DNA of 64,000 nt from a virus: IMG/VR virus record IMGVR_UViG_3300027666_000001. One strand, 5' to 3'. The stretch's first letter is position 1; every line of letters begins with the position of its first letter. This document shows positions 4,907 through 55,392 of this stretch, piece after piece. Below the pieces are notes generated by a model, which saw only the letters and a list, made by a program, of their open reading frames with translations, ran no database searches and was not told the DNA's origin. A program made the translations under genes and the position numbers.

Positions 4907-5786
4907 GTGCTTCTCCTTTCCGAGAACCACAGTACACCTTTTTCCACCGTCGAGCGCAAGGGTTAGCGAGAAGCACCTTTCAGGCCCATAGGCATCACGT
5001 ACCTCCTCCGCCACGAAGCCACCTGAGCCCGCCTGACGGCCCCAGCCACCCACCGACCGCCGCAGGGCCGCACCAACCCCTGCGCGCGCCCTAGAGCGCC
5101 GCCCAGCCCCCTTCCGGCCCGCACCCTGCCCACCGCCTCAGCCCCCAGATCTTTTTGGAGCGAAGCGATTCCTCCGTCCTCCCGCCGCCAGGCCGGGCGC
5201 CAGCCCGGATGGCGGGCCCTTGCCTACAGGTACAGACAGGAGAGAGGAGGATGTTTCTGTTCTTAAAGAGTGGGTGGTTCCGCAGGTCAGGGCGCAAGTA
5301 GGGGTTCAATACTCTCGTTTTTCCGAGAACTGGCAGCCAAAGAAAATCACCATGAATCGGTACGAATCGGGCACTGCATACCCCTCCCTGTTACCTGGCT
5401 GCCAGGGTTCAATGTTGACATCGCAACCCCTGCTTGCCCTGCGCCCGTCACACCCTTTGACCTGCGCATACATCGACACATAAGTGCGCACCCCCTGGCA
5501 GATTCGGGTGACCCTCCAACTTCCAAGTTCGATTCGGTCCCCGAACCAAATAGAACCGCAGGTCAGGCGAGCCATACCCACTGAGGGTATTAATTCGGAC
5601 TTATTGGTAATAAACCCTGCAACTCGGGCTGCTCTTGTTGGTGGCATGTCAAGTTGACCGCACAGACCACCAGTCAAACTGGGACATCGTGGGAGAACCT
5701 TCGTACCTTCGAAGGCTGTCGACAGCGGGCTGACCATGAGGATCGCGACCCGTACGATCAGGGACAACAGACCCGGGAGGTGGCTG
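4907..5786. promoter_or_regulatory. 880-bp lower-GC non-coding island between divergent operons (island A)
   Basis: No ORF with an acceptable GC3 or SD pattern. Holds GAWTCGRG-type repeats, the CTAG-centred GCGCCCTAGAGCGC (5086-5099) and TTGACA/TTGACC hexamers. Confidence 0.6.
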
Positions 5787-6275
5787 ATGGCAGCCGTAGG
5801 AACGACCGCTTCACAGGACGTGTATCCCGTCGACTTCGGCTCCGTGATCGGACAGATCCGGGCGCTCATTCCGGATGTCGAGCAGGTCGACTACTCGGAC
5901 TCCGGGATCGCCGAGTACATGTTCAGCGACGCCCACCTGCGCGGGCTGTACACGATCGCCATCGGTGAGGGTTCGGCACGCATCTACCGGGCGGCGGCCT
6001 CGGCCCTGCGGGCGCTCGCCGTTTCCGAAGGTCTGATCCAGAAGGTCATCCGCACCGAAGATCTTCAGACCGACGGTGCGAAGCTGGCCGGTGCCCTGCT
6101 CGCCGGAGCGAAGCAGCTCGAAGACCGGGCGGATGCGGCCGACGAGGACTCCGAGATCATGGTGATCGTGGACTTCCAGCCGGTGCCGCAGGACGGCTTC
6201 CCCTACAGCCTGCACGGTTTTCCCCAGGGGTGGACTGCCGGAATCGGCGGCCCTACCTTCGCGCGCTGGCTCTGA
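5787..6275 (+). CDS. head-to-tail adaptor-like protein (162 aa)
   Basis: ATG behind GGGAGGTGG SD. First gene of the rightward structural operon. Function assigned from position and size only. Confidence 0.4.
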   Translation: MAAVGTTASQDVYPVDFGSVIGQIRALIPDVEQVDYSDSGIAEYMFSDAHLRGLYTIAIGEGSARIYRAAASALRALAVSEGLIQKVIRTEDLQTDGAKLAGALLAGAKQLEDRADAADEDSEIMVIVDFQPVPQDGFPYSLHGFPQGWTAGIGGPTFARWL

Positions 6276-6281
6276 CAAGGA

Positions 6282-6321
6282 GGATCCGGGATTCGGGTGA
6301 AGATTCCCCGAACCTGGATCC
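6282..6321 (+). other. imperfect 40-nt hairpin bounded by GGATCC arms
   Basis: GGATCCGGGATTCGGG-tgaagatt-CCCCGAACCTGGATCC lies just after the stop at 6275. Contains GATTCGGGTGA, which is also found at 5501-5511. Confidence 0.4.
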
Positions 6322-6377
6322 TACTGGTGCGTAGGCGGGTAGCTTCCGTGGATCCAGCTTCCAAGAGGGCAGGGACC

Positions 6378-6566
6378 ATGGAAAAGAAGGAATACGAGCC
6401 GCCGATCACTGTCACCGAGGGAGGCGGAAAGATCACCATCTCCTACGACCAGACCGAGGTCTCCATCCCTGAGAACGGACCGGTGCCCAGCGGCACCCCG
6501 CCCCTCGCCTGCCGCATCTTCAACGCGCTGAAGTGCGATCTTCCGGGGCGTCTGCGTGCAGAATAG
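6378..6566 (+). CDS. hypothetical protein (62 aa)
   Basis: ATG 6378 after AAGAGGGCAGGG. High GC3 throughout. Confidence 0.5.
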   Translation: MEKKEYEPPITVTEGGGKITISYDQTEVSIPENGPVPSGTPPLACRIFNALKCDLPGRLRAE

Positions 6567-6571
6567 GCCCC

Positions 6572-7141
6572 ATGGCCTCACTCAACAGGCGCAGCGCTCT
6601 GGATCCCCGCTGGCAACTGCACCAGCGGTCGGTTCCTCGCGGCCACATGAACGCGGCGGTGGAGATCTTCCGCAGGCCGTCGCAGGGCGGTGAGTACGGC
6701 TTCGACCCCATCTCCGGCGGCCTGACGATTCCCGACGGCCAGGGCGGCGAGAAATTCCCCGAACTGATCCTGCTGTACCGGGGGCCGGGCCGCATCGCCA
6801 ACAACAAGGACTGGCGCGCGAGGGTCCGCACCCAGCGGGGCGATATGGGTACCGACCACGCGATCCGCGTACAGGTGCCGATCCGCACATGCCCGCCAGT
6901 GCATGCCAACGATCTGGTACGTGCACTTGAGCCCGACCCGAACGATCCGGAACTCGGCCATCTGATCCTCGGAGATCCGGAGCTGGTCCATTACCTTTTC
7001 CACGTACGCAACCCGCTCATGTCCTCGAATGCATGGCTGAGGAATGTCCTCTGTGACGTGGACGCGGCGCACCCGCAGACGCTGCCGCCGCCGTTCTCGA
7101 TGGAGCCCGTCGCCATGAACAACGGCGTGATGGGTCCTTGA
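6572..7141 (+). CDS. head-tail connector protein (stopper/head-closure-like, 189 aa)
   Basis: Sits between the adaptor-like and gp10-like genes. ATG 6572 lies 5 nt after the previous stop. Confidence 0.4.
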   Translation: MASLNRRSALDPRWQLHQRSVPRGHMNAAVEIFRRPSQGGEYGFDPISGGLTIPDGQGGEKFPELILLYRGPGRIANNKDWRARVRTQRGDMGTDHAIRVQVPIRTCPPVHANDLVRALEPDPNDPELGHLILGDPELVHYLFHVRNPLMSSNAWLRNVLCDVDAAHPQTLPPPFSMEPVAMNNGVMGP

Positions 7142-7160
7142 CCAGGGGAGAGGGAACCAC

Positions 7161-8075
7161 GTGGGCCTGAAGATTGCGCTGCTCAGCCGGGACAATGGCG
7201 TGGGTCTGTCGCTGGATGCCGCACTGCTCACCGAGCTTTTCGAGTCGGCTGGGCATGAAGTGGAATTCCATGACTGGCAGGCGAAGGAGATGCCCCGGAC
7301 GGACGTCGCTTTTCATCTCGAACTGGTCAGCCGGAACCTCGCCCAGTTCGCCGACAAGAACATCGCCATTCTGAACCTGGAATGGTATCCACGAGAGTGG
7401 ATGAAATACCTTGCGGCGTTTGATCAGATCTGGGCCAAGAGCAACTACGCACTGCGGTTCTGCCGCAATCGTGGCGGCAAGAACGTGCAGCTCACCGGGT
7501 TTCTGGGAACAGATCTCCATGATCCGGACGTAAAGCGTGAGCTGAAGTGCATGCATCTGCGCGGCCGGTCAGGGATGAAGGGCACGGAACAGGTCATCGG
7601 CGCCTGGCAGAAGGACTCAACCCTGCCGCCCCTGACGATCATCTCGAAGGATGAGGTGCACATTCCGGCAGGGCTCGAAGACCGCATCACCGTCGTCCTC
7701 TCACCTTCCGACGAGGAGCGCAATCGCCTGATGAACGAGGCGCAGATCCACGTCTGCCCCTCCATTGCCGAGGGGTGGGGCCACTACATCACTGAGGCCA
7801 TGTCGGTGGGCGCCATCGTGGTGACGACCGACGCCTCACCGATGAACGAGCACATCAGGCCGGAGTGGGGCTACCTGGTCGGAGTGACCAGCACGCGCAA
7901 CCACCACCAGGCGATCCTCACGTACACCTCTCCGACGCTCGTTGCCGAGGCGGTACGCCGGGCCGCAGCCCTCACCCCGGAACGACGTGAGCAGATCGGT
8001 AAAGCGGTTCGCGCCCGCTTCCTGAAGCGCAATGCCGAGTTCAAGGAAATCGCACTGAGGCTGGTGGAGCGGTGA
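7161..8075 (+). CDS. glycosyltransferase, GT-B fold (GT1/GT4-like, 304 aa)
   Basis: C-terminal EGWGHYITEAMSVGAIVVTTDASPMNE matches the E-x7-E retaining-GT motif. GTG start. Confidence 0.7.
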   Translation: MGLKIALLSRDNGVGLSLDAALLTELFESAGHEVEFHDWQAKEMPRTDVAFHLELVSRNLAQFADKNIAILNLEWYPREWMKYLAAFDQIWAKSNYALRFCRNRGGKNVQLTGFLGTDLHDPDVKRELKCMHLRGRSGMKGTEQVIGAWQKDSTLPPLTIISKDEVHIPAGLEDRITVVLSPSDEERNRLMNEAQIHVCPSIAEGWGHYITEAMSVGAIVVTTDASPMNEHIRPEWGYLVGVTSTRNHHQAILTYTSPTLVAEAVRRAAALTPERREQIGKAVRARFLKRNAEFKEIALRLVER

Positions 8076-8902
8076 AGCACACGGTTCTGGTTCCTGCGTG
8101 GCGCAGGCCCGACATGCTGCATGCCTGCCTCACCCGGCTGGCCAAGGCGGCGGCGGGTTATGACGTGCGAGTGGTGGTGACGCTGGACCGGAAGGGTACC
8201 CTGGAATGCCGTCAGGTGGCCGAATCCTTTTCCAGCTCGTTCTCCGAGATTTTTCTGCGCGTGATGCACCATCACCAGTTCCACGGGAATTCCTACAACA
8301 TCCTGTCTGGACTGAAGGATGCATTGTCCATCGAAGCCGACCTGATTCACGTGGTCGAGGACGACATCATGGTCTCGCTCGGTTACTTCGCGTATCACGA
8401 AGCAGCCCACTCGGCGGCTCCGGACGCTTTCTCGGTGAGTGCCTGCCGGAACCAGAACCTGACCGGAGAACCCCCAGCGGCGGCCTACCGGCACCCTTCC
8501 TACCAGTCGCTCGGAGTGTCTTTCCGGCCCGAGGTGGCCCGCCGCGTGGTTGCCCACAACAAGCCGGTGTACTACGGCGACATGGTCGGTTACTGCCGCC
8601 GCACCTTCCCCGGCAGTCAGATCCCGCCGGGGCATGCGGAGCAGGACGGGCTGTTCAACCGGATCCGGGAGAGCGGCCGGGGGGTGACGGTGTACCCCGC
8701 GCAGCCCCGGGCTTTCCATGCGGGGTTCTACGGGTACAACCGGACGGGCCGGAAACTCTCGGGCTCGATCGAGCGCCGGTCGGAGAGGATCCTCTCGATG
8801 ACCTCGGAAGAGATGAATGCGATGGCGGGTCTGATGAAGGACCATGAGGTCATCGACCTGGACGAGAACCTTCCGGTCGACGAGGTGAGGGAGGCCCTGT
8901 AA
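8072..8902 (+). CDS. glycosyltransferase, GT-A fold (GT2-like, 276 aa)
   Basis: N-terminal VLVPAWRRPDML plus a VVEDD DxD-type motif. GTGA overlap with the previous GT gene. Confidence 0.6.
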   Translation: MKHTVLVPAWRRPDMLHACLTRLAKAAAGYDVRVVVTLDRKGTLECRQVAESFSSSFSEIFLRVMHHHQFHGNSYNILSGLKDALSIEADLIHVVEDDIMVSLGYFAYHEAAHSAAPDAFSVSACRNQNLTGEPPAAAYRHPSYQSLGVSFRPEVARRVVAHNKPVYYGDMVGYCRRTFPGSQIPPGHAEQDGLFNRIRESGRGVTVYPAQPRAFHAGFYGYNRTGRKLSGSIERRSERILSMTSEEMNAMAGLMKDHEVIDLDENLPVDEVREAL

Positions 8903-9315
8903 TGGCGTATATCGGGATCAAGTACAACTACCGGTTCGGCGGTGCCCAGCGGTACTACGGCGGCGGCACTCCGAACGGCGCCTTCGACATCGGCCTCTCT
9001 GCGTTCGTCATCGACCACTTGAACAAGTCCCGTCAGCGACTGGTTCTGGACATGTCGAACGCCCGGCGCCGGGGCGAGGGTCTGGTGCGGGCGAAGTCCC
9101 GCGTGGACACGGGACGGATGAAGTCCTCCGTCACCGGCACGGGCGACTTCGGTACCGACATCCTGAAGATCTCCTTCGGCTGGGAGTCCAACAACCCGTA
9201 CTACGCACCCTTCCAGGAGTTCGGTACGCGTACCGGCATCACCCCGATGATGGCCGTGCTCGACGCCTTCAACCAGGTGACCACCGAGCTTCAGGCGCGA
9301 GTGGGTGGTCGCTGA
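8902..9315 (+). CDS. HK97 gp10-family head-tail connector protein (137 aa)
   Basis: VDTGRMKSSV and YYAPFQEFGT motifs are typical of the gp10 family. TAATG junction. Confidence 0.6.
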   Translation: MAYIGIKYNYRFGGAQRYYGGGTPNGAFDIGLSAFVIDHLNKSRQRLVLDMSNARRRGEGLVRAKSRVDTGRMKSSVTGTGDFGTDILKISFGWESNNPYYAPFQEFGTRTGITPMMAVLDAFNQVTTELQARVGGR

Positions 9316-9800
9316 TGGCCTCTCTGCTGGACTGGCAGCTCGACATCTACAGCCGACTGGATACGGGACTGCCCAACACGCCGGTTTTCCTGGAAGGCGT
9401 ACCCGAGAACACCGACGTCATCAAGGACCCCTCGGGCTTCTACAAGCCAAGCGTCATCCTCTGGTTCGGCCAGGCATTCGACATCTCCGGATTCGGTGGC
9501 CGCCTGTCTGTGGCGGACCTCTGCGGTGTTTCCGGAGAGGACAAGGGCGTCACGAAGAAGGCGGGATTCATTGTCGAATCCGTGGCGCCATCCGGACTTT
9601 CGCTTCTTCAGCTCGCCCAGGCATGCCGGGATCTGCTCGTCGGATACACGCCCGCCGACCAGGGCGAGATCAGCGAAGCCGGATCGGGAACAGTCCGCGA
9701 TCCCTACCCGGTTGGTGTCGGCGACACGCTGCGTTTCTACCTGGCGATCGGGTTCCAGGGTGTCGTGAATGTGGGTCAGCACACCGGAACGGGTTCGTGA
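9315..9800 (+). CDS. tail terminator-like protein (161 aa)
   Basis: TGATG junction. Lies directly upstream of the major tail protein gene. Confidence 0.45.
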   Translation: MASLLDWQLDIYSRLDTGLPNTPVFLEGVPENTDVIKDPSGFYKPSVILWFGQAFDISGFGGRLSVADLCGVSGEDKGVTKKAGFIVESVAPSGLSLLQLAQACRDLLVGYTPADQGEISEAGSGTVRDPYPVGVGDTLRFYLAIGFQGVVNVGQHTGTGS

Positions 9801-9892
9801 AGAATTCGCTTCGGGCGCCCAGCGTCCCAGGCAGGGGCTTTCGCGGTTAGACTCCGGTCAGGCACGATCATGCCTTCCGGCCGGAGGTACGA

Positions 9893-10459
9893 ATGGCAGC
9901 AGTGAAGAGCCTCCCCCCGTCGCTCACCATCTGGTGGGTCGACGAATCGGACCAGACGTCCGAGGGGTACGAGGGCACGTACGGCGAGGGTTTCGCGGAC
10001 ATCGACCACCCGACCGCCGCAGAGATCAACGCGGGTCTGAACATCTCGTGCGCACTGACCACCGACATCACGCTCGGCTGGACGGACCGTGACACGGACG
10101 ACACGCGTGGCCTCTGCGACGACTCGAACGTGGCGACCCCGACCGCGAAGAACTACGAAGGCCAGCTCAACGTCTTCCTGGACCGCGACCCGAACAAGCT
10201 CGACCCGTCGATCTACAACGACGTGATGCGCCTGTTCAAGAAGCCCCTGCGCTCGGGGTTCCTGGTCCAGCGGATCTCGAAGCACCCCGTTCGGGATCCG
10301 AACGCGGTGGACGACGACTGGGTCACGGTCTACAAGTTCCTCTCCGGCGACCCCAACGTCATCAACGACGCGACCGCCCCCCTTCAGCTTCAGCCGACCA
10401 TGTATGCCCAGGGCCAGTCCTCGGACGGCCTTGTGCAGGTCGGCAGCACCGCGAGCTGA
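9893..10459 (+). CDS. major tail protein (188 aa)
   Basis: GGAGGTACGA SD. Lies before the chaperone/tape-measure genes. The AEINAGLNIS motif resembles actinophage tail tube subunits. Confidence 0.6.
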   Translation: MAAVKSLPPSLTIWWVDESDQTSEGYEGTYGEGFADIDHPTAAEINAGLNISCALTTDITLGWTDRDTDDTRGLCDDSNVATPTAKNYEGQLNVFLDRDPNKLDPSIYNDVMRLFKKPLRSGFLVQRISKHPVRDPNAVDDDWVTVYKFLSGDPNVINDATAPLQLQPTMYAQGQSSDGLVQVGSTAS

Positions 10460-10485
10460 CAACCCGTACGACCGAAGGAACGGAC

Positions 10486-11599: not shown

Positions 11600-11612
11600 A
11601 GCGGAGGTCTAG

Positions 11613-25093: not shown

Positions 25094-26041
25094 TCACGCG
25101 ATTCCCGTGGTCGCGGGCAGGAGGTACTTCTCCTCCCACGAGTAGAGCAGGTCGTAGTACCTGCTTCCGAGGTGCCGGGCGCGATGTGGCCTAGGCAGCT
25201 CGGGGATACACAAATGGTAGCAGTCCTCACCGTTTCTAGGGACGGGAGTCGCAGTGAAGATGTTCTCCTTCAGGAGCATTTCCGGGAACAGATCGCGGAC
25301 CCACTCCTGGCCGTAGACGTACGGCGCCAGCTCCACGTCCCGCTCGCTCGCCATGCCCTGCCAGAACATCTGGTCCTCACGCGAACGCACCGACAGGGTG
25401 TCCAGGTCGGGGCCGACCGGCGTGAACTGCACGCCGCGCGAGGGCTCCAGGAGAACCACCTTCGGGACGCCCGTGAGCCGCGAGGCCATGGCCTCGGGCA
25501 CGCCCTTGTCCCGGACGATGTCGGCCGCGAACAGCCGGAAGGCGGTGTCGCCGCGCGTCGCCGCCTCCAGGGCCAGGTGCACCACCCGCATGTCGCACGA
25601 GCCGAGCACTCGCGTGGCCTGCATTCCCTCAGGCCGGACCATCCACTTCTGGCAGGTCGCCGATGACAGCTCGGTCATCTCCTCGAAGAAGGAGGAGCTG
25701 AAGAGCATCAGTGGGCTGAGCAGGGTCACCGCCGCCAGCCGACGCCGCCTGCTCCACCTGCGGCGGTTCACGTGGGCCCACCAGGTGAAGGAGAGGATCT
25801 GCCCTCTCTCCGCCGGGCTGTACACGTGGAGCAGGTCGACGTCGGCCGGGTTGGTGTTGTACGGGCTGCGGAAGACGGTCCGGTTGGGGGCGTCCATGAC
25901 GCGCTCCACGGCCCTCACGAGGTGTGGGAAGCGGTGCAGTGAGGGAACGAGCATCCTGGCCCGGGAGACGCGCTCCTGGGGCGTTCCGTAGCGGTCCCCG
26001 GGCGGCCTCCCCGGCGGGCGCCCGGTCGGCTTTCGGGCCAC
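25094..26041 (-). CDS. hypothetical protein (315 aa)
   Basis: GTG 26041 behind CCGGAGGAAGC SD. High GC3 except the last 40 or so codons. Confidence 0.65.
   Translation of the reverse strand: MARKPTGRPPGRPPGDRYGTPQERVSRARMLVPSLHRFPHLVRAVERVMDAPNRTVFRSPYNTNPADVDLLHVYSPAERGQILSFTWWAHVNRRRWSRRRRLAAVTLLSPLMLFSSSFFEEMTELSSATCQKWMVRPEGMQATRVLGSCDMRVVHLALEAATRGDTAFRLFAADIVRDKGVPEAMASRLTGVPKVVLLEPSRGVQFTPVGPDLDTLSVRSREDQMFWQGMASERDVELAPYVYGQEWVRDLFPEMLLKENIFTATPVPRNGEDCYHLCIPELPRPHRARHLGSRYYDLLYSWEEKYLLPATTGIA
25188..25197. promoter_or_regulatory. GGCCTAGGCa operator-like palindrome (site S1)
   Basis: 9/10 match to GGCCTAGGCC, 109 nt upstream of the polymerase start. Embedded in the rare-codon 3' end of the upstream ORF. 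A second CTAG site lies at 25232-25240. Confidence 0.45.
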
Positions 26042-39791: not shown

Positions 39792-39917
39792 CTACCTCCA
39801 GCGGGGCCACTCCTGGTAGATCACGAGATGACCCAGGATGAACAGGGCCGAGAAGATGGCCGCTGCCACGACGGCAAACGTCAGCTCCTTCACGGCCTGC
39901 CTGAGAAACGCCTTCAC
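39792..39917 (-). CDS. small membrane protein (41 aa, below ORF-track cutoff)
   Basis: GTG in a GTGA overlap with the upstream stop. One hydrophobic helix, FAVVAAAIFSALFILGHLVIY. Confidence 0.45.
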   Translation of the reverse strand: MKAFLRQAVKELTFAVVAAAIFSALFILGHLVIYQEWPRWR

Positions 39918-40108
39918 TGCTGGTACATCCGCTTCACGTCGCGGATGTCGTCGAGCCGATAGCGGATTCCCTGGGCGGTCCGGACCGGCTGGATGAGGTT
40001 CTGGGCGAGGATCCGGCGCGCGCGGCGTTCCTTCACGCCCATGCGCGCGGCAGCCTCGGTGATGTCGACCAGGGGATCCGAGGAGATGCTGTTCGTCATG
40101 GCGATCAC
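39914..40108 (-). CDS. MerR/excisionase-type HTH DNA-binding protein (64 aa)
   Basis: DITEAAARMGVKERRARRIL...GIRYRLDDI matches the small Xis-like HTH pattern. GTGA overlap. Confidence 0.55.
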   Translation of the reverse strand: MIAMTNSISSDPLVDITEAAARMGVKERRARRILAQNLIQPVRTAQGIRYRLDDIRDVKRMYQQ

Positions 40109-40308
40109 TCTGCCACGTTTTCCGGCTCCTTGCCCAGCAGGGAATCGAGACCCCGAAGGGTCAGAATCCGCACCACATCCACGTCGTACTGGACGCCCAT
40201 GTTCTTCTTGGCCTCGGCGAGCCGCTTCTTCTCGCTGCTCGTCCAGCGCACGACGGTCCGCTCTTCGCGCTTTTCCGGTCCCTGTTCGGACTTCTTCCGC
40301 CCGGCCAT
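40105..40308 (-). CDS. hypothetical basic protein (67 aa)
   Basis: TGATG junction. Lys/Arg/Glu-rich, possibly ribbon-helix-helix. Confidence 0.5.
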   Translation of the reverse strand: MAGRKKSEQGPEKREERTVVRWTSSEKKRLAEAKKNMGVQYDVDVVRILTLRGLDSLLGKEPENVAE

Positions 40309-40529
40309 CAGGTGTAGTCGATTCCGGAGACGGACCGACTGCCGGGACCGGATGCGGTCGCCGGACCGGTGTTCTTCACCGTGACGCTTCCGCCGGACTT
40401 CGGCGGCGGCCCGCTGTATCCGGTGACCGCCGCCCCGCCGTTCGAACTGGTGGCCGGACCGGTGTTCTCGATGACGACCGTGGCGCCGTCTCGCGTCAAG
40501 AAGTGCTTGACGCGGCTGAGGACTCCCAT
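40308..40529 (-). CDS. hypothetical Gly/Ser/Thr-rich protein with internal NTGPAT repeat (73 aa)
   Basis: ATG behind GGAAGGGAAG SD. VVIENTGPATSS and VTVKNTGPATAS repeat. Confidence 0.55.
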   Translation of the reverse strand: MGVLSRVKHFLTRDGATVVIENTGPATSSNGGAAVTGYSGPPPKSGGSVTVKNTGPATASGPGSRSVSGIDYT

Positions 40530-44266: not shown

Positions 44267-44304
44267 ACTCTAACATTGACCTAGGCCAGCCAACAAGGCG
44301 AACC
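44267..44304 (-). promoter_or_regulatory. promoter candidate TTGTTG-18-TAGAGT with GGCCTAGGtC palindrome in the spacer (site S3)
   Basis: The minus strand reads GGTTCGCCTTGTTGGCTGGCCTAGGTCAATGTTAGAGTGGAG, 26 nt upstream of ATG 44241. Confidence 0.5.
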
Positions 44305-44949: not shown

Positions 44950-44965
44950 TTTTCCCTCACCTTCC

Positions 44966-44995
44966 CTGTGGGGCCACCCTCCAGCGGCCCCACAG
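44966..44995 (-). terminator. perfect 10-bp hairpin CTGTGGGGCC-10 nt-GGCCCCACAG
   Basis: Begins 3 nt after an in-frame second stop (44998) of the upstream gene frame and ends 17 nt before GTG 44949. Confidence 0.55.
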
Positions 44996-45174
44996 ATTCA
45001 CCGGCCGGGACCGGCGGGCCGAAGTACCGGCAGCCCGTCGAGGTCGTCGTCCTTCTGGAACACGACTCGTCCCCTTTCCAAGCGGCTCGTTCGTCCGCTT
45101 CGTACCTCCGGCCGGATGCGAACCGGCTTCCAGCGGTAGCTGGGCTGCCACTCGGCAGCGAAGGCCCTCGTGCA

Positions 45175-46137: not shown

Positions 46138-46152
46138 GTCTCTCCTTCCGTG

Positions 46153-46381: not shown

Positions 46382-46404
46382 ACAAGCGAACGCGAGGAGA
46401 AAAA

Positions 46405-47139
46405 GTGAGCGAGCAGATTCCCAAGTACCGTGCCATTGCGGCACATTACCGATCCAGGATCACCTCTGGTGAGCTGGCGCCGGGTACTCCGCTGGAGTCG
46501 CGCCGCAGGCTCGCCAAGACCCACAAGACGTCGCGCGTCACCATCGACAAGGTCGTGGAACTGCTGACGGCTGAAGGGGTCCTGGAGCCGTCCAGCGGCA
46601 ACCGGCCGCCCGTCGTGGCGGACATCTCGGGCCGCACGGCCACGGTTCAGGACCGGGTCGGGAACTACGCGGCAAGCGGCCGGGCGCTCGGCGCCCGGGA
46701 GACCTCGGAGATCCTTCGGGTCGAGACGGTTCCATGCCCTGCCGAGATCGCCACCGCGCTGGGGGTCGAACCGGGTGAGGGCGTCGTCTACCGGGAGCGC
46801 CTGAACCGGATCGACGGCAAGCCGGTCGCCACCGGGCACTCGTACTACCCGCCCGAGGTGACGGCCGTGACCCCCGAGCTGGCGATGGCGGAGGCCACGC
46901 CGCGCGGTTCGCGCGAGCTGGCCGCCGAGCGCATGGGATCCCGACAGAAGGACCTGATCCCCGTCATCACGTCGCGACTGGCGACCGACCGGGAGCGGGA
47001 GCTTCTGGAACTCAAGGGCGCGTACGCGATCGTCACGCAGACGGCACGCCGGGTCCTGCTGGCCAATGGCAAGGTCGTCGAAGTCGCGGTGAAGGTCTGC
47101 GAGGGCAACCGGCCGGTCTCGTTCCACGTGCCCCTGTGA
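46405..47139 (+). CDS. GntR-family transcriptional regulator (HutC-like, UTRA-type C-terminal domain, 244 aa)
   Basis: GTG behind AGGAGAAAAA SD. N-terminal IPKYRAIAAHYRSRITSGELAPGTPLESRRRLAKTHKTSRVTIDKVVELLTAEGVL matches the GntR wHTH pattern. Confidence 0.75.
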   Translation: MSEQIPKYRAIAAHYRSRITSGELAPGTPLESRRRLAKTHKTSRVTIDKVVELLTAEGVLEPSSGNRPPVVADISGRTATVQDRVGNYAASGRALGARETSEILRVETVPCPAEIATALGVEPGEGVVYRERLNRIDGKPVATGHSYYPPEVTAVTPELAMAEATPRGSRELAAERMGSRQKDLIPVITSRLATDRERELLELKGAYAIVTQTARRVLLANGKVVEVAVKVCEGNRPVSFHVPL

Positions 47140-47160
47140 GGACCCCATGCGGATGTGCAG

Positions 47161-47190
47161 AGCCCCCGTTGCAACGGTGCGACGGGGGCT
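47161..47190. terminator. bidirectional hairpin between convergent genes
   Basis: AGCCCCCGT-12 nt-ACGGGGGCT followed by TTTCG on the plus strand. Confidence 0.55.
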
Positions 47191-47199
47191 TTCGCATGC

Positions 47200-49094: not shown

Positions 49095-49150
49095 GTCATT
49101 CTCCTCTCCTAGTCAACACAGCCAGAATACAGGCAAGTTGGGGAAAACAG

Positions 49151-49176
49151 GAAGCCCCCGCCGGAGCGGGGGCTTC
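49151..49176 (-). terminator. rho-independent terminator
   Basis: GAAGCCCCCGC-4 nt-GCGGGGGCTTC followed on the minus strand by CTGTTTTCCCC. Lies 18 nt after the stop at 49194. Confidence 0.7.
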
Positions 49177-49193
49177 TCTGCCGTGCGGGCTTG

Positions 49194-50354: not shown

Positions 50355-50419
50355 GTCTGGGTTTCTCCCTTTCCGAAAACCCCCGGTTTTGGAAACCTCG
50401 CTTGGGGGCGTTAGGCATG

Positions 50420-50449
50420 ACTGTGCCAGCGTGGCCTAGGCCGTGTCAA
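50420..50449 (-). promoter_or_regulatory. promoter candidate TTGACA-18-CACAGT with perfect GGCCTAGGCC in the spacer (site S5)
   Basis: The minus strand reads GGTTCGCTTGACACGGCCTAGGCCACGCTGGCACAGT. Palindrome at 50433-50442. Confidence 0.5.
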
Positions 50450-50495
50450 GCGAACCAGGGCCAGATTCGGGAAGTGGTCCGTTCTGTCCGAATTC

Positions 50496-50517
50496 ACCAT
50501 GATTCGAGAATCATGGT
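50496..50517. promoter_or_regulatory. 22-bp palindrome ACCATGATTC-GA-GAATCATGGT
   Basis: Perfect 10-bp arms in non-coding island B. Confidence 0.6.
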
Positions 50518-50617
50518 ACGAAGTGCCGCCCCGTCGTGCCCTCATTCGTCCGATTCGAGTGGAGAACAACCACCCTTTCTTTGGCTTCTTCCGACGGGAC
50601 GGAACCTCTTCCACGCT

Positions 50618-51049
50618 TCAGGAAGAGCGGGACCTCCGGAAGAGGCCGTAAAGGAAGCCCTTCCGTTCGCTGCGATGCCGTCCGGAAGGAGTCGGAATCT
50701 CCTCGGAAACCTGGTGACCAGCGGCGTCGGGATCGTCTGCCTCAATTCGTCCGGTTTCGTCTTCCAGAACCTGCTCGGAAGGGGGGTCGATTGCGGTCAG
50801 GTTCAGTACGTAGACGTTCGCCCCCCGCAGGCCGGTGGCAGAGAAGCCCGGTTCGGTGCGCAGCAGTCCGCTCCGGGTGAGTTCGGCCCTGGCTCGCACC
50901 AGGGCGCCCTGCGTCAGTCCGCTGTCCTTGAGGAGGGTGGTCGTTGCCACCTGGGCCCGCCCCGCCTCGTTCACGTGCTTCAGCAGGGCGTCCAGCAGCT
51001 TTCGTGCCTCATGGCCCAGCGCGTTGCGGTCATAGGGGTTGTCGCTCAT
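50618..51049 (-). CDS. winged-helix DNA-binding protein (143 aa)
   Basis: ATG 51049 behind GGGAAAGGTGA SD. TTTLLKDSGLTQGALVRARAELTRSGLL resembles a wHTH. Confidence 0.5.
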   Translation of the reverse strand: MSDNPYDRNALGHEARKLLDALLKHVNEAGRAQVATTTLLKDSGLTQGALVRARAELTRSGLLRTEPGFSATGLRGANVYVLNLTAIDPPSEQVLEDETGRIEADDPDAAGHQVSEEIPTPSGRHRSERKGFLYGLFRRSRSS

Positions 51050-51093
51050 GCCGTCACCTTTCCCGTGATCTGTGTCGGGCATCAGCGTACGGC

Positions 51094-51127
51094 GAAGGGC
51101 CGCCAGAACATCGTCTGGCGGCCCTTC
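51094..51127 (-). terminator. 14-bp perfect hairpin
   Basis: GAAGGGCCGCCAGA-6 nt-TCTGGCGGCCCTTC, 26 nt after the stop at 51153. Confidence 0.65.
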
Positions 51128-51152
51128 TGGTAGGCCATCTCGTGTGGCCTGG

Positions 51153-52601
51153 TCATCCGGCCCAGGGGTCGTCGTTCAGGTCGCTCAGCCAGCGGCCAAC
51201 CGTGGAGGCGTCCACGCCGAGGACACGGGCGCCTTCGGCGCGGCTCAGGTGTCCCTGCTGGATTTCCCCGTGCAGCCACGCGATGACGGCGGAGCGGGCC
51301 TCCTCCTTCTCCTCGGCCGTGAAGCCGGACTTCGGAGCCTGGGAAGCGTGGTACGTGAGCACGACCATCGGGTGACGGCCGACCGGAACCTGAGACGTCT
51401 CCTGCCCGGCTTCCACGGCCTCCGTGAGAACGGGAACGGACTCGGGCGCGGCATCTTCCTGGACGGGCTCCAGGGCGGCTTCCTCCGCTTCCGGTGCGGG
51501 TTCGATGTCGGGCGCCACCACCCACCAGTCCTCATGCTCCGGCTCCGCCGTGGCCGGGTAGGGACCGGCCAGGGCGAACTGGACCTGCAACTCCCCCTGC
51601 AAGGGTTGCTGCACGGGCCCCTTCTCCAGGCTGACCTGCACGGATTCGCTTGCATCCGGGTTCTCGTGCAAGGCCGTCTGCATAGGGGTCCGCAAGGGCG
51701 TGGTGGGCTCGTCCAGAAGCAGCCCGTCATCACCCTCAGTGACGCCCGAAACATCCAGCTTCGTCCACTGTGAAGTGGCCTGCTGCATGGGCTCTTGCAC
51801 GTCGGGAATAGGCTCCTTGACCAGGGAGTATGCCGGTTCCGGACTGGCCTGCCGCGAGGTCTCATTCCGGAAGTCGTTCGTCACCGAGGCGATGTCGTCG
51901 AACGACTGGCCCGACTTGCCCTGGTCTGCGACATCCGAAGTGGCCTGCTGCACGACCTGCGGCAATACCGTTGTGGGCGCTTCCGGAGCAGTTACCGCAC
52001 GGGTTTCGGCTTCGGGCGAAATGGCCTGCTGCACCGGCTCCTGCAAATCCGGCTGTTCGAATCGCTCAGTTTCGACCGAATCTTCCGAATCGTCCCTCGC
52101 CCGTTCGGCCTCTTCGCCGGAACTCGACTCGTCCACCTGCGGGTTTTCGAGGATCTGCGTGGGGCTCTCCGGCGCAGGGTCGACGAGCGTCTTGTTCTCG
52201 TCATCCTCACTTTCCGTGATCCCCTTCGACTCCTCTCCTTCGGTTACCCACGGCTCCTCGCGGCCCAGCTTCCGCTCACGTGCAGAGAACACCGCCAGCC
52301 CGATCACCGTGAGGAGGACGGCTGCACCGAGCGCCTGCGGAACGCTGGTCGAGTGACCGCCCCGCTCCGGGCCGCCGGTCGCCGCGCTCAGGACCACCCA
52401 GATCGGAATGAGCACGATGAACGCCCGGCCACCCTTGGCCCACACCGAGCGGTGCTCGCCGTTCTCGTCCAGCTCCAGCACCCAGTTCTTGCTTCCGTGC
52501 AGCCCCCTGCGGAACATCCTGCCCAGCCCCTTGGAGCCGTTCTGGACCTCCATCGACTGCCTGATTCCCGCTGCCTGCGGGACCTTCACGCGGATCGCCA
52601 T
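51153..52601 (-). CDS. membrane protein with acidic repeat region and C-terminal HTH (482 aa)
   Basis: ATG 52601 behind GGAGATGAGGAGG SD. Two TM helices. Repeats QEPVQQAIS, VVQQATS, QEPMQQATS and GPVQQPLQ. C-terminal LSRAEGARVLGVDASTVGRWL. Confidence 0.65.
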   Translation of the reverse strand: MAIRVKVPQAAGIRQSMEVQNGSKGLGRMFRRGLHGSKNWVLELDENGEHRSVWAKGGRAFIVLIPIWVVLSAATGGPERGGHSTSVPQALGAAVLLTVIGLAVFSARERKLGREEPWVTEGEESKGITESEDDENKTLVDPAPESPTQILENPQVDESSSGEEAERARDDSEDSVETERFEQPDLQEPVQQAISPEAETRAVTAPEAPTTVLPQVVQQATSDVADQGKSGQSFDDIASVTNDFRNETSRQASPEPAYSLVKEPIPDVQEPMQQATSQWTKLDVSGVTEGDDGLLLDEPTTPLRTPMQTALHENPDASESVQVSLEKGPVQQPLQGELQVQFALAGPYPATAEPEHEDWWVVAPDIEPAPEAEEAALEPVQEDAAPESVPVLTEAVEAGQETSQVPVGRHPMVVLTYHASQAPKSGFTAEEKEEARSAVIAWLHGEIQQGHLSRAEGARVLGVDASTVGRWLSDLNDDPWAG

Positions 52602-52625
52602 GACCTCCTCATCTCCTCTCCGAGT

Positions 52626-52652
52626 GGCCCGCCGGAGCTGTTCCGGCGGGCC
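52626..52652 (-). terminator. 11-bp perfect hairpin
   Basis: GGCCCGCCGGA-5 nt-TCCGGCGGGCC lies between the stop at 52681 and the SD of the next gene. Confidence 0.55.
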
Positions 52653-52680
52653 GTTTCCACTGGTTCTTGCAGGCCACTTT

Positions 52681-52926
52681 TCAGCGGCCCTGGACCCACT
52701 TTCTGGGGTCGTTGTGATTCTCCCAGGAGGGAACCACGATCCGGTCCCCATACCTGGTGTACCCGATGTGCGTGCCCGGCGGGATGAGCCGGTTGCCCGC
52801 CGACAGGCTGCCGCACGAGAGACAGGGGTCCCCCTCCAGGCGGCCGTGCTCGCAGCGGTGCAGGTCCAGCAGCAGCTTGGCCAGACGGCTCGTTTCGACC
52901 TCCTGCGGGGTCGGCAGCTCAGCCAC
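52681..52926 (-). CDS. hypothetical zinc-ribbon-like protein (81 aa)
   Basis: GTG 52926 overlaps the upstream stop by 8 nt (GTGGCTGA). HRCEHG...CLSCG. Confidence 0.5.
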   Translation of the reverse strand: MAELPTPQEVETSRLAKLLLDLHRCEHGRLEGDPCLSCGSLSAGNRLIPPGTHIGYTRYGDRIVVPSWENHNDPRKWVQGR

Positions 52927-53128
52927 GAGCGGCTTCCAGGGTTCGATTCGAATCGGACGAACGGGTTCGAATCTCCCTGAATTCGGTGCAGGCGCAGGTC
53001 CCACGGCCCTGTGCCAGCTTGTGGCGGCAGGCCGTACGGGAGCCCTTCAGGTGCGTTCCAGTGTGTTCGTGCCGGGGGTGCCCGCACCCCGAGGGGCCGG
53101 TACAGAGCATCTTCTCGTGCAGGCTCAT
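52919..53128 (-). CDS. hypothetical Cys/His-rich protein (69 aa)
   Basis: ATG 53128 behind ACGAGGAGAAC SD. CTGPSGCGHPRHEH...CRHK...CACTEF. Confidence 0.5.
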   Translation of the reverse strand: MSLHEKMLCTGPSGCGHPRHEHTGTHLKGSRTACRHKLAQGRGTCACTEFREIRTRSSDSNRTLEAARG

Positions 53129-53151
53129 CGCGTTCTCCTCGTTCTTGCTGG

Positions 53152-53421
53152 TCAGCGCTCGGCGGCCAGCTCGCTCAGCTTCGCCGCCAGCTTCGCATTC
53201 AGGTCCAGCGCCTGCTCGTACGTCAGCTCGGCGAACAAGCCCGGGTCCTCGTCGGCCTGGAGGTCCGTCAGCGGCACCGTCAGGCGCTCGCCGAAACCGG
53301 TCTTCACCGGGCCGAAGCCGCCGATGACGATGTGGCAGCCCGGGGTCATGCTCTTGTCCACGGCCAGCCTGGCGTTCCTGTCGATGTCGCCCAGGCTGTT
53401 CAGGGCACGGATCTCGCTCAC
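53152..53421 (-). CDS. hypothetical protein (89 aa)
   Basis: GTGA overlap at 53418-53421. Confidence 0.6.
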   Translation of the reverse strand: MSEIRALNSLGDIDRNARLAVDKSMTPGCHIVIGGFGPVKTGFGERLTVPLTDLQADEDPGLFAELTYEQALDLNAKLAAKLSELAAER

Positions 53422-53753
53422 TTCTCCTCCTCGGTCCAGGTGCGTCCCAGGTAGTCCTTGTGCGGCTCCTTGTGGCCGCGTGCCAGCCCCTCGCAGGGCT
53501 CGCCGTCGTCGGGGTGCTCCGAGCCGCAGAACAGCAGGATGTCGTGCTCCGCGAAGGCGGCGACGATCGCCGGTTCCTCGTCGTACACACCCACGGTGCC
53601 CTCGGCGTTGTTCCAGCCCATCTCCGTCAGGGCCTTGATCAGCTTGGAGGCGATGCGCTGGACGGCCTCCGCGCCGATCTGCTCCTTGACCAGGAGGATT
53701 TCGTCCATGACCGGTTCGAACACGTCGGTTCCGGCCTCGTACTTGATTCCCAC
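53418..53753 (-). CDS. hypothetical protein (111 aa)
   Basis: GTG 53753 behind GGAATGAGGAGAAT SD. Confidence 0.55.
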   Translation of the reverse strand: MGIKYEAGTDVFEPVMDEILLVKEQIGAEAVQRIASKLIKALTEMGWNNAEGTVGVYDEEPAIVAAFAEHDILLFCGSEHPDDGEPCEGLARGHKEPHKDYLGRTWTEEEK

Positions 53754-53780
53754 ATTCTCCTCATTCCGATGGTTCTTCCA

Positions 53781-53811
53781 GGGGTTCGCCCTGGAATCCA
53801 AGGCGAACCCC
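53781..53811. repeat. inverted repeat GGGGTTCGCC-11 nt-GGCGAACCCC (element E1)
   Basis: Perfect 10-bp arms with loop CTGGAATCCAA. Related to E2 at 54538-54562. Confidence 0.6.
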
Positions 53812-53816
53812 CACCG

Positions 53817-54035
53817 TCACACCGTCTCGATACGGGTCACGCGGTAGAGGCCCGCGTAGATCTCGCGTGCCGCCTCCGCGTCGTCCACATCGTCCAGCTC
53901 GACCAGGAAGGTGTGATGCTCGCCCGTCACGTCGGTGCAGAGCTTGCCGTTGACCGGGCACGGGCCGGTCTTCTTCTCGCGCGGGTTGTGCTCAGGGTTC
54001 TTCGCGAGCCGTACCGTGACCAGGAACTGTGCCAT
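53817..54035 (-). CDS. hypothetical protein (72 aa)
   Basis: TGATG junction at 54035. High GC3. Confidence 0.6.
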   Translation of the reverse strand: MAQFLVTVRLAKNPEHNPREKKTGPCPVNGKLCTDVTGEHHTFLVELDDVDDAEAAREIYAGLYRVTRIETV

Positions 54036-54502
54036 CAGCCGTTCACCCGGCCGATGTAGACCTTCCGGCCGCCGTACTTGTACTCGGAGATCGGGGCGAC
54101 GACGACCTTGTAACCCCGGTAGGAACCGGAGTTGGCGTTCAGGATCTTGTCCCCGCCGACGTAGATGCCCACGTGCTTGATGTTGCCGGACGAGGTGCCG
54201 AAGAACACCAGGTCACCCTTGGCGCGCTTGCTCCACGAGATCTTCGAGGACTTGTTGTACTGGCCCTGGGCGGTGCGCGGCAGCGTCTTGCCGTTCTTCT
54301 TGTACGAGTAGTACGTCAGGCCCGAGCAGTCGTAGGCGTTCGGACCGGCGGCGCCGTCCCTGTAGGGGTCCCCCTTCTGGGCGGTGGCCGTACTCAGGGC
54401 CTTCGTCCGTATCGGAGTGGCCGCACTGGCACTGGGCGCCACGGTCAGCATGATCCCTCCCGCGAGCGCGGTGGACAGGGCGACGGTGGTGAGCTTCTGC
54501 AT
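54035..54502 (-). CDS. secreted NlpC/P60 peptidoglycan endopeptidase, second copy (155 aa)
   Basis: ATG 54502 behind AAGGAGAAGCACC SD. Signal peptide ...APSASA. DCSGL and KHVGIY motifs. Confidence 0.75.
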   Translation of the reverse strand: MQKLTTVALSTALAGGIMLTVAPSASAATPIRTKALSTATAQKGDPYRDGAAGPNAYDCSGLTYYSYKKNGKTLPRTAQGQYNKSSKISWSKRAKGDLVFFGTSSGNIKHVGIYVGGDKILNANSGSYRGYKVVVAPISEYKYGGRKVYIGRVNG

Positions 54503-54537
54503 GGTGCTTCTCCTTGGATTCCGAGATTCTTCTGGAT

Positions 54538-54562
54538 GTTCGCGATGGAATTCCTGGCGAAC
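54538..54562. repeat. inverted repeat GTTCGC-13 nt-GCGAAC with inner GGAATTCC (element E2)
   Basis: Lies in a 59-nt spacer upstream of the NlpC/P60 gene. The loop shares TGGAAT(T/C)C with E1. Confidence 0.45.
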
Positions 54563-55029
54563 TACCAGCTCATTCCTTCGGGACTGAAGAGGACGGGGAT
54601 GCCCGCTTTCCTGGCGCGCTCGACGCAGTCGGCCGTTCCGTGGGAGGGGTGTTCGCCGGGCGGACACCAGGGGCTGTTCTTCCGGCACGGGTTCGCCCAT
54701 GCCATGACGAGCTGGGCTCCGGCGCTGACCATGTCCTGGTTGCGGAGATTGCCCGCGTAGTTGCCATGGGCGTCCCAGTCGGGCAGGTAGGGGACCTCCA
54801 GGACCAGGGAGTCGTCGAAGCGCGCAGCCCAGTCGCTGAGGTACCGGTCGGCGCCGCGCTTGTTCTTGCCGTTGCGCACGAGCAGACGGCCGTGCCGCTT
54901 CAGCAGGCGAGTGACCGGAGTCCAGACCGCACTGCGGTCCGCCCAGTCTCGTGAGCCTGTTCCGATCAGCTCGAAATACGGGACGTTGAGATTCAACGTC
55001 TCTGCCGTTAGCTGCGGTTGGGCGTTCAT
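54562..55029 (-). CDS. DUF2493/SLOG-family protein (155 aa)
   Basis: GTGSRDWADRSAV...LVRNGKNKRGADRYLSDWA...PDWDAHGNYAGNLRNQDMV fits the DUF2493 pattern. GGAGGCAC SD. Confidence 0.55.
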   Translation of the reverse strand: MNAQPQLTAETLNLNVPYFELIGTGSRDWADRSAVWTPVTRLLKRHGRLLVRNGKNKRGADRYLSDWAARFDDSLVLEVPYLPDWDAHGNYAGNLRNQDMVSAGAQLVMAWANPCRKNSPWCPPGEHPSHGTADCVERARKAGIPVLFSPEGMSW

Positions 55030-55045
55030 GTGCCTCCTATCGAAC

Positions 55046-55087
55046 GGCCTAGGCCGATCCTACCCGATGGCCTACTTCTCGGGTAGG
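55046..55087. promoter_or_regulatory. perfect GGCCTAGGCC (site S6, 55046-55055) followed by 9-bp hairpin CCTACCCGA-11 nt-TCGGGTAGG
   Basis: Lies 17 nt upstream of ATG 55029. Additional GGCCTA/TAGGCC half-sites at 55069-55074 and 55084-55089. Confidence 0.5.
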
Positions 55088-55270
55088 CCACTTCATGAGG
55101 AGGCTTGTCCTGATTCGTGGCGATTCTTGGTCACTGCGAATCATCATGAACTCCTGCGAATCGGGCATACCGGACCACTTTTTATGGATCCCCGACACGC
55201 TACAGCAGGACATAAACGGTCAATCTGGACGGTCCGAATCGAGCGATTCACCCGTTGTGTCCATTACCCT

Positions 55271-55341
55271 TCGGTAGCTTCTCTTCCGAGATTCGGGCGC
55301 CTTCCGACCTGATTCTTGTTACTTCTCGGTAGCTTCTCTTC
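55271..55341. repeat. two direct copies of TCGGTAGCTTCTCTTC (55271-55286, 55326-55341)
   Basis: Exact 16-mers 55 bp apart in non-coding island C. Each is followed by a (GA)TTCGGG-type motif. Confidence 0.7.
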
Positions 55342-55392
55342 GGGTTCGGGGTGAAGGAAAGTTACCGAACGGTAGGCAGATGGCACACGAAA

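Follow-up and report, generated by a model that had tools for sequence, protein, structure and literature searches.

Three non-coding islands of a cluster-BM Streptomyces phage contain helically phased arrays of a 9-10 bp repeat that may be operators for a BldC-type protein

We analyzed a 64,000 nucleotide (nt) stretch of viral DNA, IMG/VR record IMGVR_UViG_3300027666_000001 (hereafter the window), and found that three non-coding islands, A, B, and C, contain arrays of a 9-10 base pair (bp) repeat unit. The unit is enriched in the islands and nearly exclusive to them, its copies are helically phased, the arrays are conserved in related phages, and there is identity with published units of the Streptomyces regulator BldC. 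From these features we infer that a protein binds to the arrays; its identity, the promoter positions, and the regulatory outcome proposed below are predictions. Summed over all binders considered, the arrays are likely to be protein-binding sites at regulatory regions. The specific reading that we prefer, to which we assign a probability of about 40%, is that they are multimer-binding operators for a BldC-type protein, encoded by the phage or by its host, at three regulatory regions. The BldC-type model alone explains the sequence of the unit, its length, the head-to-tail order, and the spacing together.

BLAST searches against phage records showed that the window belongs to a Streptomyces phage of cluster BM, the members of which are large siphoviruses with genomes of about 185-200 kb. 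Compared with phage Frankenweenie, it is 91% identical in the surroundings of island A and 86% in those of islands B and C; compared with JustBecause/Kela and with Satis/Kradal/Quantum, it is 75-82% identical. Four window proteins that were tested had 98-100% identical counterparts on a 72 kb IMG/VR contig, the island A DNA of which differs. Two complete genomes were compared, Frankenweenie (200,048 bp) and JustBecause (184,281 bp). The islands have a G+C content (GC) of 56-60%, versus about 65% for the window. A preliminary description had recognized them as the three longest non-coding stretches, and they correspond to the three longest unannotated gaps in the window-matching stretch of the Frankenweenie annotation. 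Their proposed limits agreed with start and stop codons, except that island C extends to 55421 (stop codon at 55422) and not to 55392.

4907..5786, no strand assigned: island A, a divergent non-coding region with start codons at 4906 (minus strand) and 5787 (plus strand); leftward small genes on one side, the rightward tail/structural operon on the other
50355..50617, minus strand: island B, non-coding, between two minus-strand genes; downstream of the gene for a 143 amino acid winged-helix protein and upstream of a membrane-protein gene
55030..55421, minus strand: island C, non-coding, between a terminator-ended minus-strand gene and a SLOG/'DprA-like' gene

In the Frankenweenie annotation, too, island A separates small leftward genes from the tail operon, which runs rightward, and islands B and C are flanked by minus-strand genes in a long leftward replication block. 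All three gaps are retained at near-equal length in Frankenweenie, JustBecause, and Satis; for island A, which has conserved blocks, the gap measures 837-876 bp in these phages.

The preliminary description had listed short words shared between the islands, and all of them were found where it had placed them, apart from the tandem GAATCGGTACGAATCGG, which is present but starts at 5354 instead of 5355.

5500, 50463, and 55289: AGATTCGGG, with no further copy on either strand in the 64 kb
5363 and 55157: CGAATCGGGCA
5347 and 50494: TCACCATGAWTCG
50548 and 55232: GTCCGAWTCGAG
5501 and 6290: GATTCGGGTGA

The shared orientation of the words, which had been noted, weighs little: GAATC is the reverse complement of GATTC, and the majority of sites can be read on either strand. 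As the composition-matched control that had been suggested, 2000 dinucleotide-preserving shuffles were generated per island. In the three islands, GAWTC was observed 17 times versus 3.35 +/- 1.72 times in the shuffles (five-fold), GAWTCG 11 times versus 0.86, and GAWTCGRG 8 times versus 0.15 (about fifty-fold); not one of the 2000 shuffles attained the observed count for any of the three words. Short words containing A and T are expected to be commoner in DNA of lower GC, and the GAWTC words might thus reflect chance or composition. However, GASTC is absent from the three islands, and its density is the same in intergenic DNA (1.47 per kb) and in coding DNA (1.49 per kb); therefore, the lower GC is not the source of the GAWTC enrichment. 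The absence of GASTC from the islands and its lack of intergenic enrichment also led us to drop the idea of a GANTC methylation site. A remnant of a transfer RNA (tRNA) T-arm (GGTTCGAWTCC) was likewise rejected, as fitting flanking stems were lacking and ARAGORN found nothing.

The flanks of the core widen to a 9-mer unit, [AG]A[AT]TCGG[ATG]C (RAWTCGGDC). For genome-wide intergenic counts, our own codon-bias gene caller was used and checked by eye against the deposited annotations. The window contains 13 copies of the unit, 8 of them in the three islands; a ninth copy is intergenic according to the gene caller, but lies inside a small gene annotated in Frankenweenie. Frankenweenie has 27 copies, of which 14 are intergenic and 9 of these in the three islands, and JustBecause has 19, with all 9 intergenic copies in the islands. 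The islands comprise about 1.5 kb per genome, or about 6% of the intergenic DNA, and the remaining 22-24 kb of intergenic DNA hold 5 copies in Frankenweenie and none in JustBecause. Because such a small fraction of the intergenic DNA holds 9/14 and 9/9 of the intergenic units, and the units are in addition phased and conserved, chance can be excluded for practical purposes and its probability is next to negligible.

In a ranking of intergenic k-mers of Frankenweenie, GGCCTAGGCC and TGACCTG, and not GAWTCG, came out on top, so that the GAWTCGG unit is a local speciality; as it is also limited to three loci, a general promoter or start-associated motif was ruled out. Clusters of GAWTC near 52074 and at 39965-40320 in the window, and at 65.3 and 77.4 kb in Frankenweenie, lie inside genes. 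They were not accepted as arrays: GAT TCG GAA GAT TCG GTC would read Asp-Ser-Glu-Asp-Ser-Val on its strand, presumably in frame, and looks like a codon effect, and the sites at 39965-40320 have no CGG extension.

The units stand head-to-tail at 9-10 bp in arrays of two to five copies, mostly oriented with the transcription of the downstream genes. Spacings between successive GAWTC cores, pooled over seven genomes, had maxima at 9-10 bp, with 14 cases, and at 18-21 bp, with 10 cases, orthologous sites not being independent observations. In the window, 6 of 14 spacings were helical multiples versus 1.44 expected (P = 0.0012). Such helical phasing is a signature of proteins along one face of duplex DNA. 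Three arrays, one per island (5592-5618, 50477-50512, and 55232-55249), are located 8-60 nt upstream of -35-like elements of the sequence TTGAC(A/C). Conservation in related genomes, a further check suggested at the outset, was also found, since both the gaps and the GAWTC density are retained: in four lineages, the orthologous island C contains 4-9 and island B 2-4 GAWTC cores. Of the 17 cores, 6 are invariant in all four lineages and the others turn over; core columns are invariant in 53% of cases, versus 41% for the remaining columns. Thus, arrays persist in relatives while single units turn over. The earlier idea of iterated sites for one DNA-binding protein therefore gains from enrichment, island exclusivity, phasing, and retention of the arrays, although "iteron" is a loose label for the units; the known model that fits best, the BldC type of head-to-tail operator, was absent from the preliminary description.

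In island A, the following units were found:

5354..5373, plus strand: head-to-tail pair GAATCGGTAC GAATCGGGCA, 10 bp spacing
5501..5539, plus strand: units GATTCGGGT (5501) and GATTCGGTC (5531), 30 bp apart
5592..5618, plus strand: AATTCGGAC TTATTGGTA ATAAACCCT, the exact optimal BldC unit, then AT tracts with 9 bp phasing

The second unit of the 5354 pair (GAATCGG) is invariant in four BM lineages, and the pair matches the conserved pair of island C at 19 of 23 nt. The units at 5501 and 5531 are retained in Frankenweenie and close relatives and are gone at these columns in JustBecause and Satis. The 5592-5618 block is part of the 40-mer with the highest AT content in the window, and TTGACC (5654-5659) is about 60 nt downstream of the block. 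Its TAATTCGGACTTAT is retained in BM lineages, and a distant relative, L027, has AATT tracts with a period of about 10 bp at this place.

Island B contains a pair and an array:

50539..50556, minus strand: pair GAATCGGAC GAATGAGGG, 9 bp spacing; GAATCGGAC is kept in 8 of 8 genomes compared
50477..50512, minus strand: array GATTCTC GAATCATGGTG AATTCGGAC AGAACGGAC, 26 nt after the pair

The array ends about 27 nt upstream of TTGACA (50449-50444), and an invariant block, CGCTTGACACGGCCTAGGCCAC..TGGCACAGTCATGC, lies about 27 nt beyond the array. Each of the 8 genomes keeps this layout with its three-unit array; the two central units measure 10 bp in Satis instead of 9.

Island C is the densest GAWTC cluster in the genomes of both Frankenweenie and JustBecause. 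On the minus strand, its elements follow in the order terminator, triple 22 bp repeat, array I, array II, hairpin, GGCCTAGGCC, and ribosome-binding site.

55232..55249, minus strand: array I, GAATCGCTC GATTCGGAC, 9 bp units, 8 nt upstream of TTGACC (55223-55218)
Array I in Frankenweenie: GAATCAGGC GAATAGGGT GATTCGGAC
Array I in the relative L012: AATTCGGTT GAATCGTGC GATTCGGAC
Array I in the relative L013: GAATCGGAT GATTCGGGC
Array I in JustBecause: GAATCGGTC-N9-GAATCGGTC
55107..55166, minus strand: array II, GATTCGCAG-N11-GATTCGCAG-N7-GAATCGCCAC GAATCAGGAC, core spacings of 20, 16, and 10 bp
55289..55297, plus strand: AGATTCGGG between 22 bp repeats; the minus strand reads AATCTCGGA

In every close lineage, array I consists of two or three units phased at 9 bp, the sequences of which differ, and its TTGACC is followed by N15 and TAGCGT (55202-55197). 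Array II is located upstream of the conserved hairpin and the ribosome-binding site. Its last pair, GAATC-N5-GAATC(N)GGAC, is kept in 7/7 genomes, including Satis and L014, in the latter of which the protein neighboring island C is just 49% identical. The plus strand at 55158-55175 reads GAATCGGGC ATACCGGAC, and the GATTCGG of the 55289 site is invariant in four lineages.

These features were compared with the DNA sites of BldC, a 68 amino acid regulator that binds as head-to-tail multimers, with each protomer on one 9 bp direct repeat, AATTNNNN(C) (Schumacher et al. 2018, PMC5859096). The optimized site is TTCAATTCGGACAATTCGGACA, i.e., AATTCGGAC AATTCGGAC; natural units include AATTCGGTC at smeA-ssfA, where four units are spaced one helical turn apart, and AATTCGGAC/AATCCGAGC at whiI (PMC5859096). 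In the window, AATTCGGAC occurs exactly at 5592 (plus strand) and 50486 (minus strand), and with one mismatch, as GATTCGGAC, at 55232 (minus strand). These were the only matches within one mismatch in the 64 kb, one per island and none elsewhere, and about 0.3 exact copies would be expected in the whole window. The islands thus contain a 9 bp unit of the form AATT-N4-C with the optimum AATTCGGAC, and at least two units head-to-tail at 9-10 bp, namely AATTCGGAC AGAACGGAC, GAATCGCTC GATTCGGAC, and GAATCGGTAC GAATCGGGCA. The best match to the 18 bp optimized dimer, both in the window and in all of Frankenweenie, was AATTCGGAC AGAACGGAC of island B, with three mismatches; the chance of one such match in 64 kb is P = 0.023. 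A BLAST search with a triple optimized site against 50,697 phage records yielded chance matches in unrelated phages only.

The operators of whiI and smeA-ssfA (PMC5859096) and the phage arrays have in common a 9 bp repeat with an AT-rich start of 4 bp, a central CGG, and C at position 9, the exact AATTCGGAC (twice in the window), head-to-tail runs of two to four or more units spaced 9-10 bp apart, a location upstream of or over promoter elements, which are putative in the phage, and the host genus Streptomyces. A BldC-type operator is expected to be bound cooperatively by BldC protomers and to lie between about -80 and -10 of the promoter under its control. In contrast to the phage arrays, the operators of whiI and smeA-ssfA belong to chromosomal developmental promoters, whereas the sites described here are predicted, lie in a lytic phage genome, and mostly begin with GAAT or GATT.

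Candidate binding proteins were sought in the window and in Frankenweenie:

39914..40108, minus strand: candidate 1, a 64 amino acid stand-alone MerR/Xis-type winged-helix protein with a BldC-like fold
50618..51049, minus strand: candidate 2, a protein of 143 amino acids that has a winged helix at the N-terminus plus a disordered basic tail; the stop codon of its gene abuts island B
46405..47139, plus strand: a GntR/HutC regulator
Outside the window: Frankenweenie gp156, a 433 amino acid FtsK-like protein with weak FtsK_SpoIIIE and C-terminal winged-helix Pfam matches, below the cut-off

The 64 amino acid protein has the size and architecture of a stand-alone MerR-like winged helix (about 60-70 amino acids, no coiled-coil or effector domain). 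It matched Pfam HTH_17 (E = 7e-5; a weak HTH_17/MerR match) and PHROG 66, "excisionase and transcriptional regulator", and is 27% identical to BldC over 48 amino acids. An AlphaFold2 model (predicted local distance difference test, pLDDT, 85; topology H-H-E-E-H) had its best PDB matches in the BldC-DNA complexes 6AMA/6AMK, with template modeling (TM) scores of 0.55-0.66 and root-mean-square deviations of 2.2-2.4 A, followed by RacA and the Xis protein of mycobacteriophage Pukovnik. Residues for DNA contact and head-to-tail dimerization of BldC were taken to be Glu16, Arg22, Lys26, Arg30, Lys36, Leu43, Gly44, His46, and Arg47/48. In a pairwise alignment, Glu16, Arg30, Gly45, Arg48, Tyr49, and Arg50 of BldC are kept, Lys26 is replaced by Arg and Leu43 by Ala, and Phe21 and Trp31 stay hydrophobic. 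A PDB sequence search with this protein returned spurious matches to designed proteins only, and homologue searches with both the 64 and the 143 amino acid proteins found unnamed phage proteins only.

Xis is a small stand-alone winged-helix protein that binds adjacent head-to-tail sites and bends DNA. The Xis micro-filament sites at attP of lambda and of mycobacteriophages L5 and Pukovnik are thus a second known parallel, with Pukovnik Xis among the top fold matches. Unlike these, the arrays occupy three loci beside promoter-like elements, and neither an integrase nor attP is annotated in Frankenweenie or JustBecause; because of the missing integrase annotation, an excisionase role of the 64 amino acid protein is unlikely.

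Several results weigh against a BldC-type binder. Matches to the 18 bp dimer with up to five mismatches numbered 3 versus 2.9 expected, so that the top match alone beats chance, and because the weaker matches are at background the link to BldC is suggestive, not proven. Most units begin with GAAT or GATT and not with AATT, and the orientation of many, including cores with CG on both flanks, is ambiguous, as the core is nearly palindromic. The motif occurs at three loci only, which is few for a general temporal regulator, and a consensus promoter scan found no canonical sigma-70 promoter. In the more distant relatives L026 and L027, island A has no GAWTC at all; therefore, the array system may be restricted to BM phages or use diverged units elsewhere. 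The 64 amino acid protein gave no match to the NCBIfam BldC model (NF033787 HTH_BldC) and a weak match to an "excise" domain (E = 0.009, below the cut-off); BldC itself scores 108 bits. It is therefore BldC-like in fold, but not a member of the BldC family by sequence. Arg22, Lys36, Gly44, and His46 are lost, leaving about half of the key BldC residues, and a phmmer search with BldC found nothing significant in the window or in Frankenweenie.

The arrays might instead be operators of another direct-repeat-binding factor, a response-regulator type or another winged helix from phage or host, with the likeness to BldC being coincidental and promoters at the three loci being controlled in otherwise the same way. 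All evidence for protein-binding arrays also fits this explanation, the BldC-specific evidence is moderate, and the genome encodes many helix-turn-helix proteins. Yet the exact 9-mer defined in the literature is present in two islands. To our knowledge, no other Streptomyces regulator with a 9 bp direct repeat of the AATTCGGAC type has been described. We thus regard another factor as conceivable, but rather unlikely.

With a BldC-type protein, monomers of a small BldC/Xis-type winged helix would bind to successive units and polymerize head-to-tail along one DNA face, thereby bending the DNA, and the bent filament would switch adjacent promoters on or off. These promoters would be that of the tail operon and two internal ones of the leftward replication block, and the binder could be the 64 amino acid BldC-like protein of the phage, host BldC, or both. 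It appears doubtful that the arrays are genuine high-affinity sites of host BldC at which the phage BldC-like protein competes or cooperates; if this were true, transcription of the tail operon and of some of the replication block of the lytic phage would be coupled to the stage of development reached by the Streptomyces mycelium, or, alternatively, the phage would titrate BldC away from its host targets. Literature on gene regulation in cluster-BM phages was not found, only genome announcements that do not mention any motifs. The analysis yields three conserved cis-elements at precisely mapped positions, together with a few candidate binders. Should these elements be bound by BldC or by a BldC-like phage protein, they would, within the literature searched, be the first BldC-type head-to-tail operators outside chromosomal developmental promoters, and phage gene expression would be linked to a master regulator of Streptomyces development.

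Island C contains further elements. The 22 bp repeat TACCnTTCGGTArCTTCTCTTC, unique in the 200 kb genome, is present in two direct copies and one inverted copy at 55264-55286, 55319-55341, and 55353-55374. The two outer copies pair in a 20 bp stem that six genomes retain; three of its pairs show double changes, each of them from the Satis lineage. The triple repeat could function either as a DNA element or as an RNA leader that can pair in alternative ways. A hairpin at 55059-55087, CCTACCCGA-N11-TCGGGTAGG, adjoins GGCCTAGGCC and is kept even in L014. On the minus strand at 55392-55417, after the upstream gene, a GC-rich hairpin resembling an intrinsic terminator is followed by TTTCGTGT; the counts of a terminator scan were at background level. 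The minus-strand gene at 54562-55029 is named "DprA-like DNA processing chain A" in relatives. This label may be too specific, because the gene matches Pfam YAcAr/SLOG (E = 8e-10) and no DprA model.

That the units act in RNA, as repeated motifs or stem elements of 5' leaders or small RNAs from the islands, is decidedly improbable. Transcripts would include array II of island C as well as the 6290 site, several units can pair (e.g., TTCGGG/CCCGAA at 6292 and 5533), and the island C stem shows the double changes just described. However, these come from a single lineage, units lie on both sides of promoter-like elements, and 9-10 bp phasing is a property of duplex DNA. Searches for tRNA, transfer-messenger RNA, and Rfam families in the window and in island A plus its spacer gave no RNA family match; for Rfam, nothing reached the gathering score or was better than E = 0.5. 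The longest alignments between islands span 20-29 nt and are themselves pairs of repeat units; together with the Rfam result, this gives no support to the paralogous small RNAs that had been proposed for the islands. The fourth site in the preliminary description, GATTCGGGTGA in the 6276-6377 spacer, does exist (6290..6300, plus strand), but forms the 5' arm of a small hairpin, TTCGGG-N8-CCCGAA, and has no GAWTC at the matching place in JustBecause; it is probably not part of the array system.

We also considered that the array units could be origin iterons, at one or several replication origins, with the 143 amino acid protein as a lambda-O-like or RepA_N-like initiator that binds to them. 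Unwinding or assembly would then take place at the AT-rich block of island A or at the 22 bp repeats in island C. The gene of this protein adjoins island B; the protein matched PHROG 391, "replication initiation O-like" (E = 1.2e-4, weak), and Pfam HTH_36 (E = 0.005, below the cut-off), its model is confident for residues of about 10-90, and Foldseek matched it to generic winged-helix proteins, including the plasmid RepA_N initiators 4pql, 4pt7, and 5kbj. As at the lambda origin and RepA_N iterons, repeats lie beside the gene for a winged-helix protein, islands B and C are within the replication-gene block, and the most AT-rich 40-mer and the unique triple repeat are located in islands A and C, respectively. 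However, the family matches are weak and the fold is generic, the units of 9-10 bp are half as long as usual iterons (17-22 bp), and they occur at three separated loci, with the AT-rich block in island A only. Moreover, the cumulative GC skew has no turning point in the window, and the arrays are co-oriented with transcription beside -35-like elements. An origin is thus unlikely; if correct, it would place replication starts in a phage group for which we found none reported. Partition, which had also been suggested, found no backing, as no ParA, ParB, or ParM gene, and no ParA/ParB, ParM/ParR, or TubZ/TubR pair, is named in the Frankenweenie and JustBecause feature tables that were read (annotation only).

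Another direct-repeat system is known from conjugative plasmids of Streptomyces, in which clt regions with clustered direct 8 bp repeats are recognized by TraB (PMC4447253). The arrays could by analogy serve a phage FtsK/TraB-like translocase such as gp156: they too are clusters of short direct repeats, to be read by a winged helix; in TraB, it is the C-terminal winged helix that reads the clt repeats. The TraB repeat of pSVH1 is reportedly GACCCGGA, which would share GAnnCGGA with the unit. But the gene for the FtsK-like protein lies outside the window, the Pfam matches of this protein fall below the cut-off, no spreading (Spd) genes are annotated, and three loci flanking promoter-like elements suit regulation better, so that we judge this possibility very unlikely.

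Apart from the arrays, the intergenic word with the strongest over-representation in Frankenweenie is the palindrome (T)GGCCTAGGCC(A) (CCTAGG, 46 versus 9.6 expected). In the window, it occurs at 44278, 46372, 50433-50442, and 55046-55055, the latter two in islands B and C, and in coding DNA at 25188 and 30979. It is usually located just upstream of ribosome-binding sites, and one copy lies 31 nt upstream of the GntR/HutC regulator gene. Because it resembles the HutC/DasR operator TGGTCTAGACCA, the palindrome is, judged by its sequence, probably the operator of this regulator, including on its own gene, and the regulator more probably reads the palindrome than the array units. Like the stoperators and start-associated sequences of cluster A and K mycobacteriophages, the array units are short repeats that are conserved and restricted to the intergenic DNA of an actinobacteriophage; however, the former are 10-35 single copies spread along the genome, unlike phased arrays at three loci, and the GGCCTAGGCC palindrome is their closer analogue.

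Island A contains a second, separate repeat system, CGCAGGTCA(G/C), sometimes as GTGACGCAGGTCAC, with copies at 5281-5289 (plus strand), 5458-5466 (minus strand), and 5557-5565 (plus strand). The two plus-strand copies persist in distant relatives without GAWTC words, and the 2.9 kb of non-coding DNA at the right end of Frankenweenie contain a cluster of at least six copies of the motif (198.5-199.1 kb). At 5250-5345, a block TTGTTCTTA..GGGTGG..CAGGTCA....TCTC.GTTTTT(T)CC has many columns that are invariant in eight diverse relatives, and it has no Rfam match. The left part of the island (4990-5230) is a C-rich, possibly coding region of about 240 nt, G-rich on the minus strand, that is conserved in four lineages. 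Directly to the left of the island, an extra gene is annotated in Frankenweenie and JustBecause and is absent from the window and Satis.

In Frankenweenie, a tRNA-Sec(tca) is annotated (70465-70537) at the place that matches 44950-45174 of the window; ARAGORN found no tRNA in the entire window. BM phages further encode, at a site outside the window, a Ro-like RNA-binding protein (Frankenweenie 90673-92620, corresponding to L009 5674-7621; JustBecause L041 7670-10106). Its gene neighbors a 91 nt "tRNA-Pro" in Frankenweenie and an RNA ligase gene in JustBecause, and a Y-RNA-like partner of the Ro-like protein may be present.

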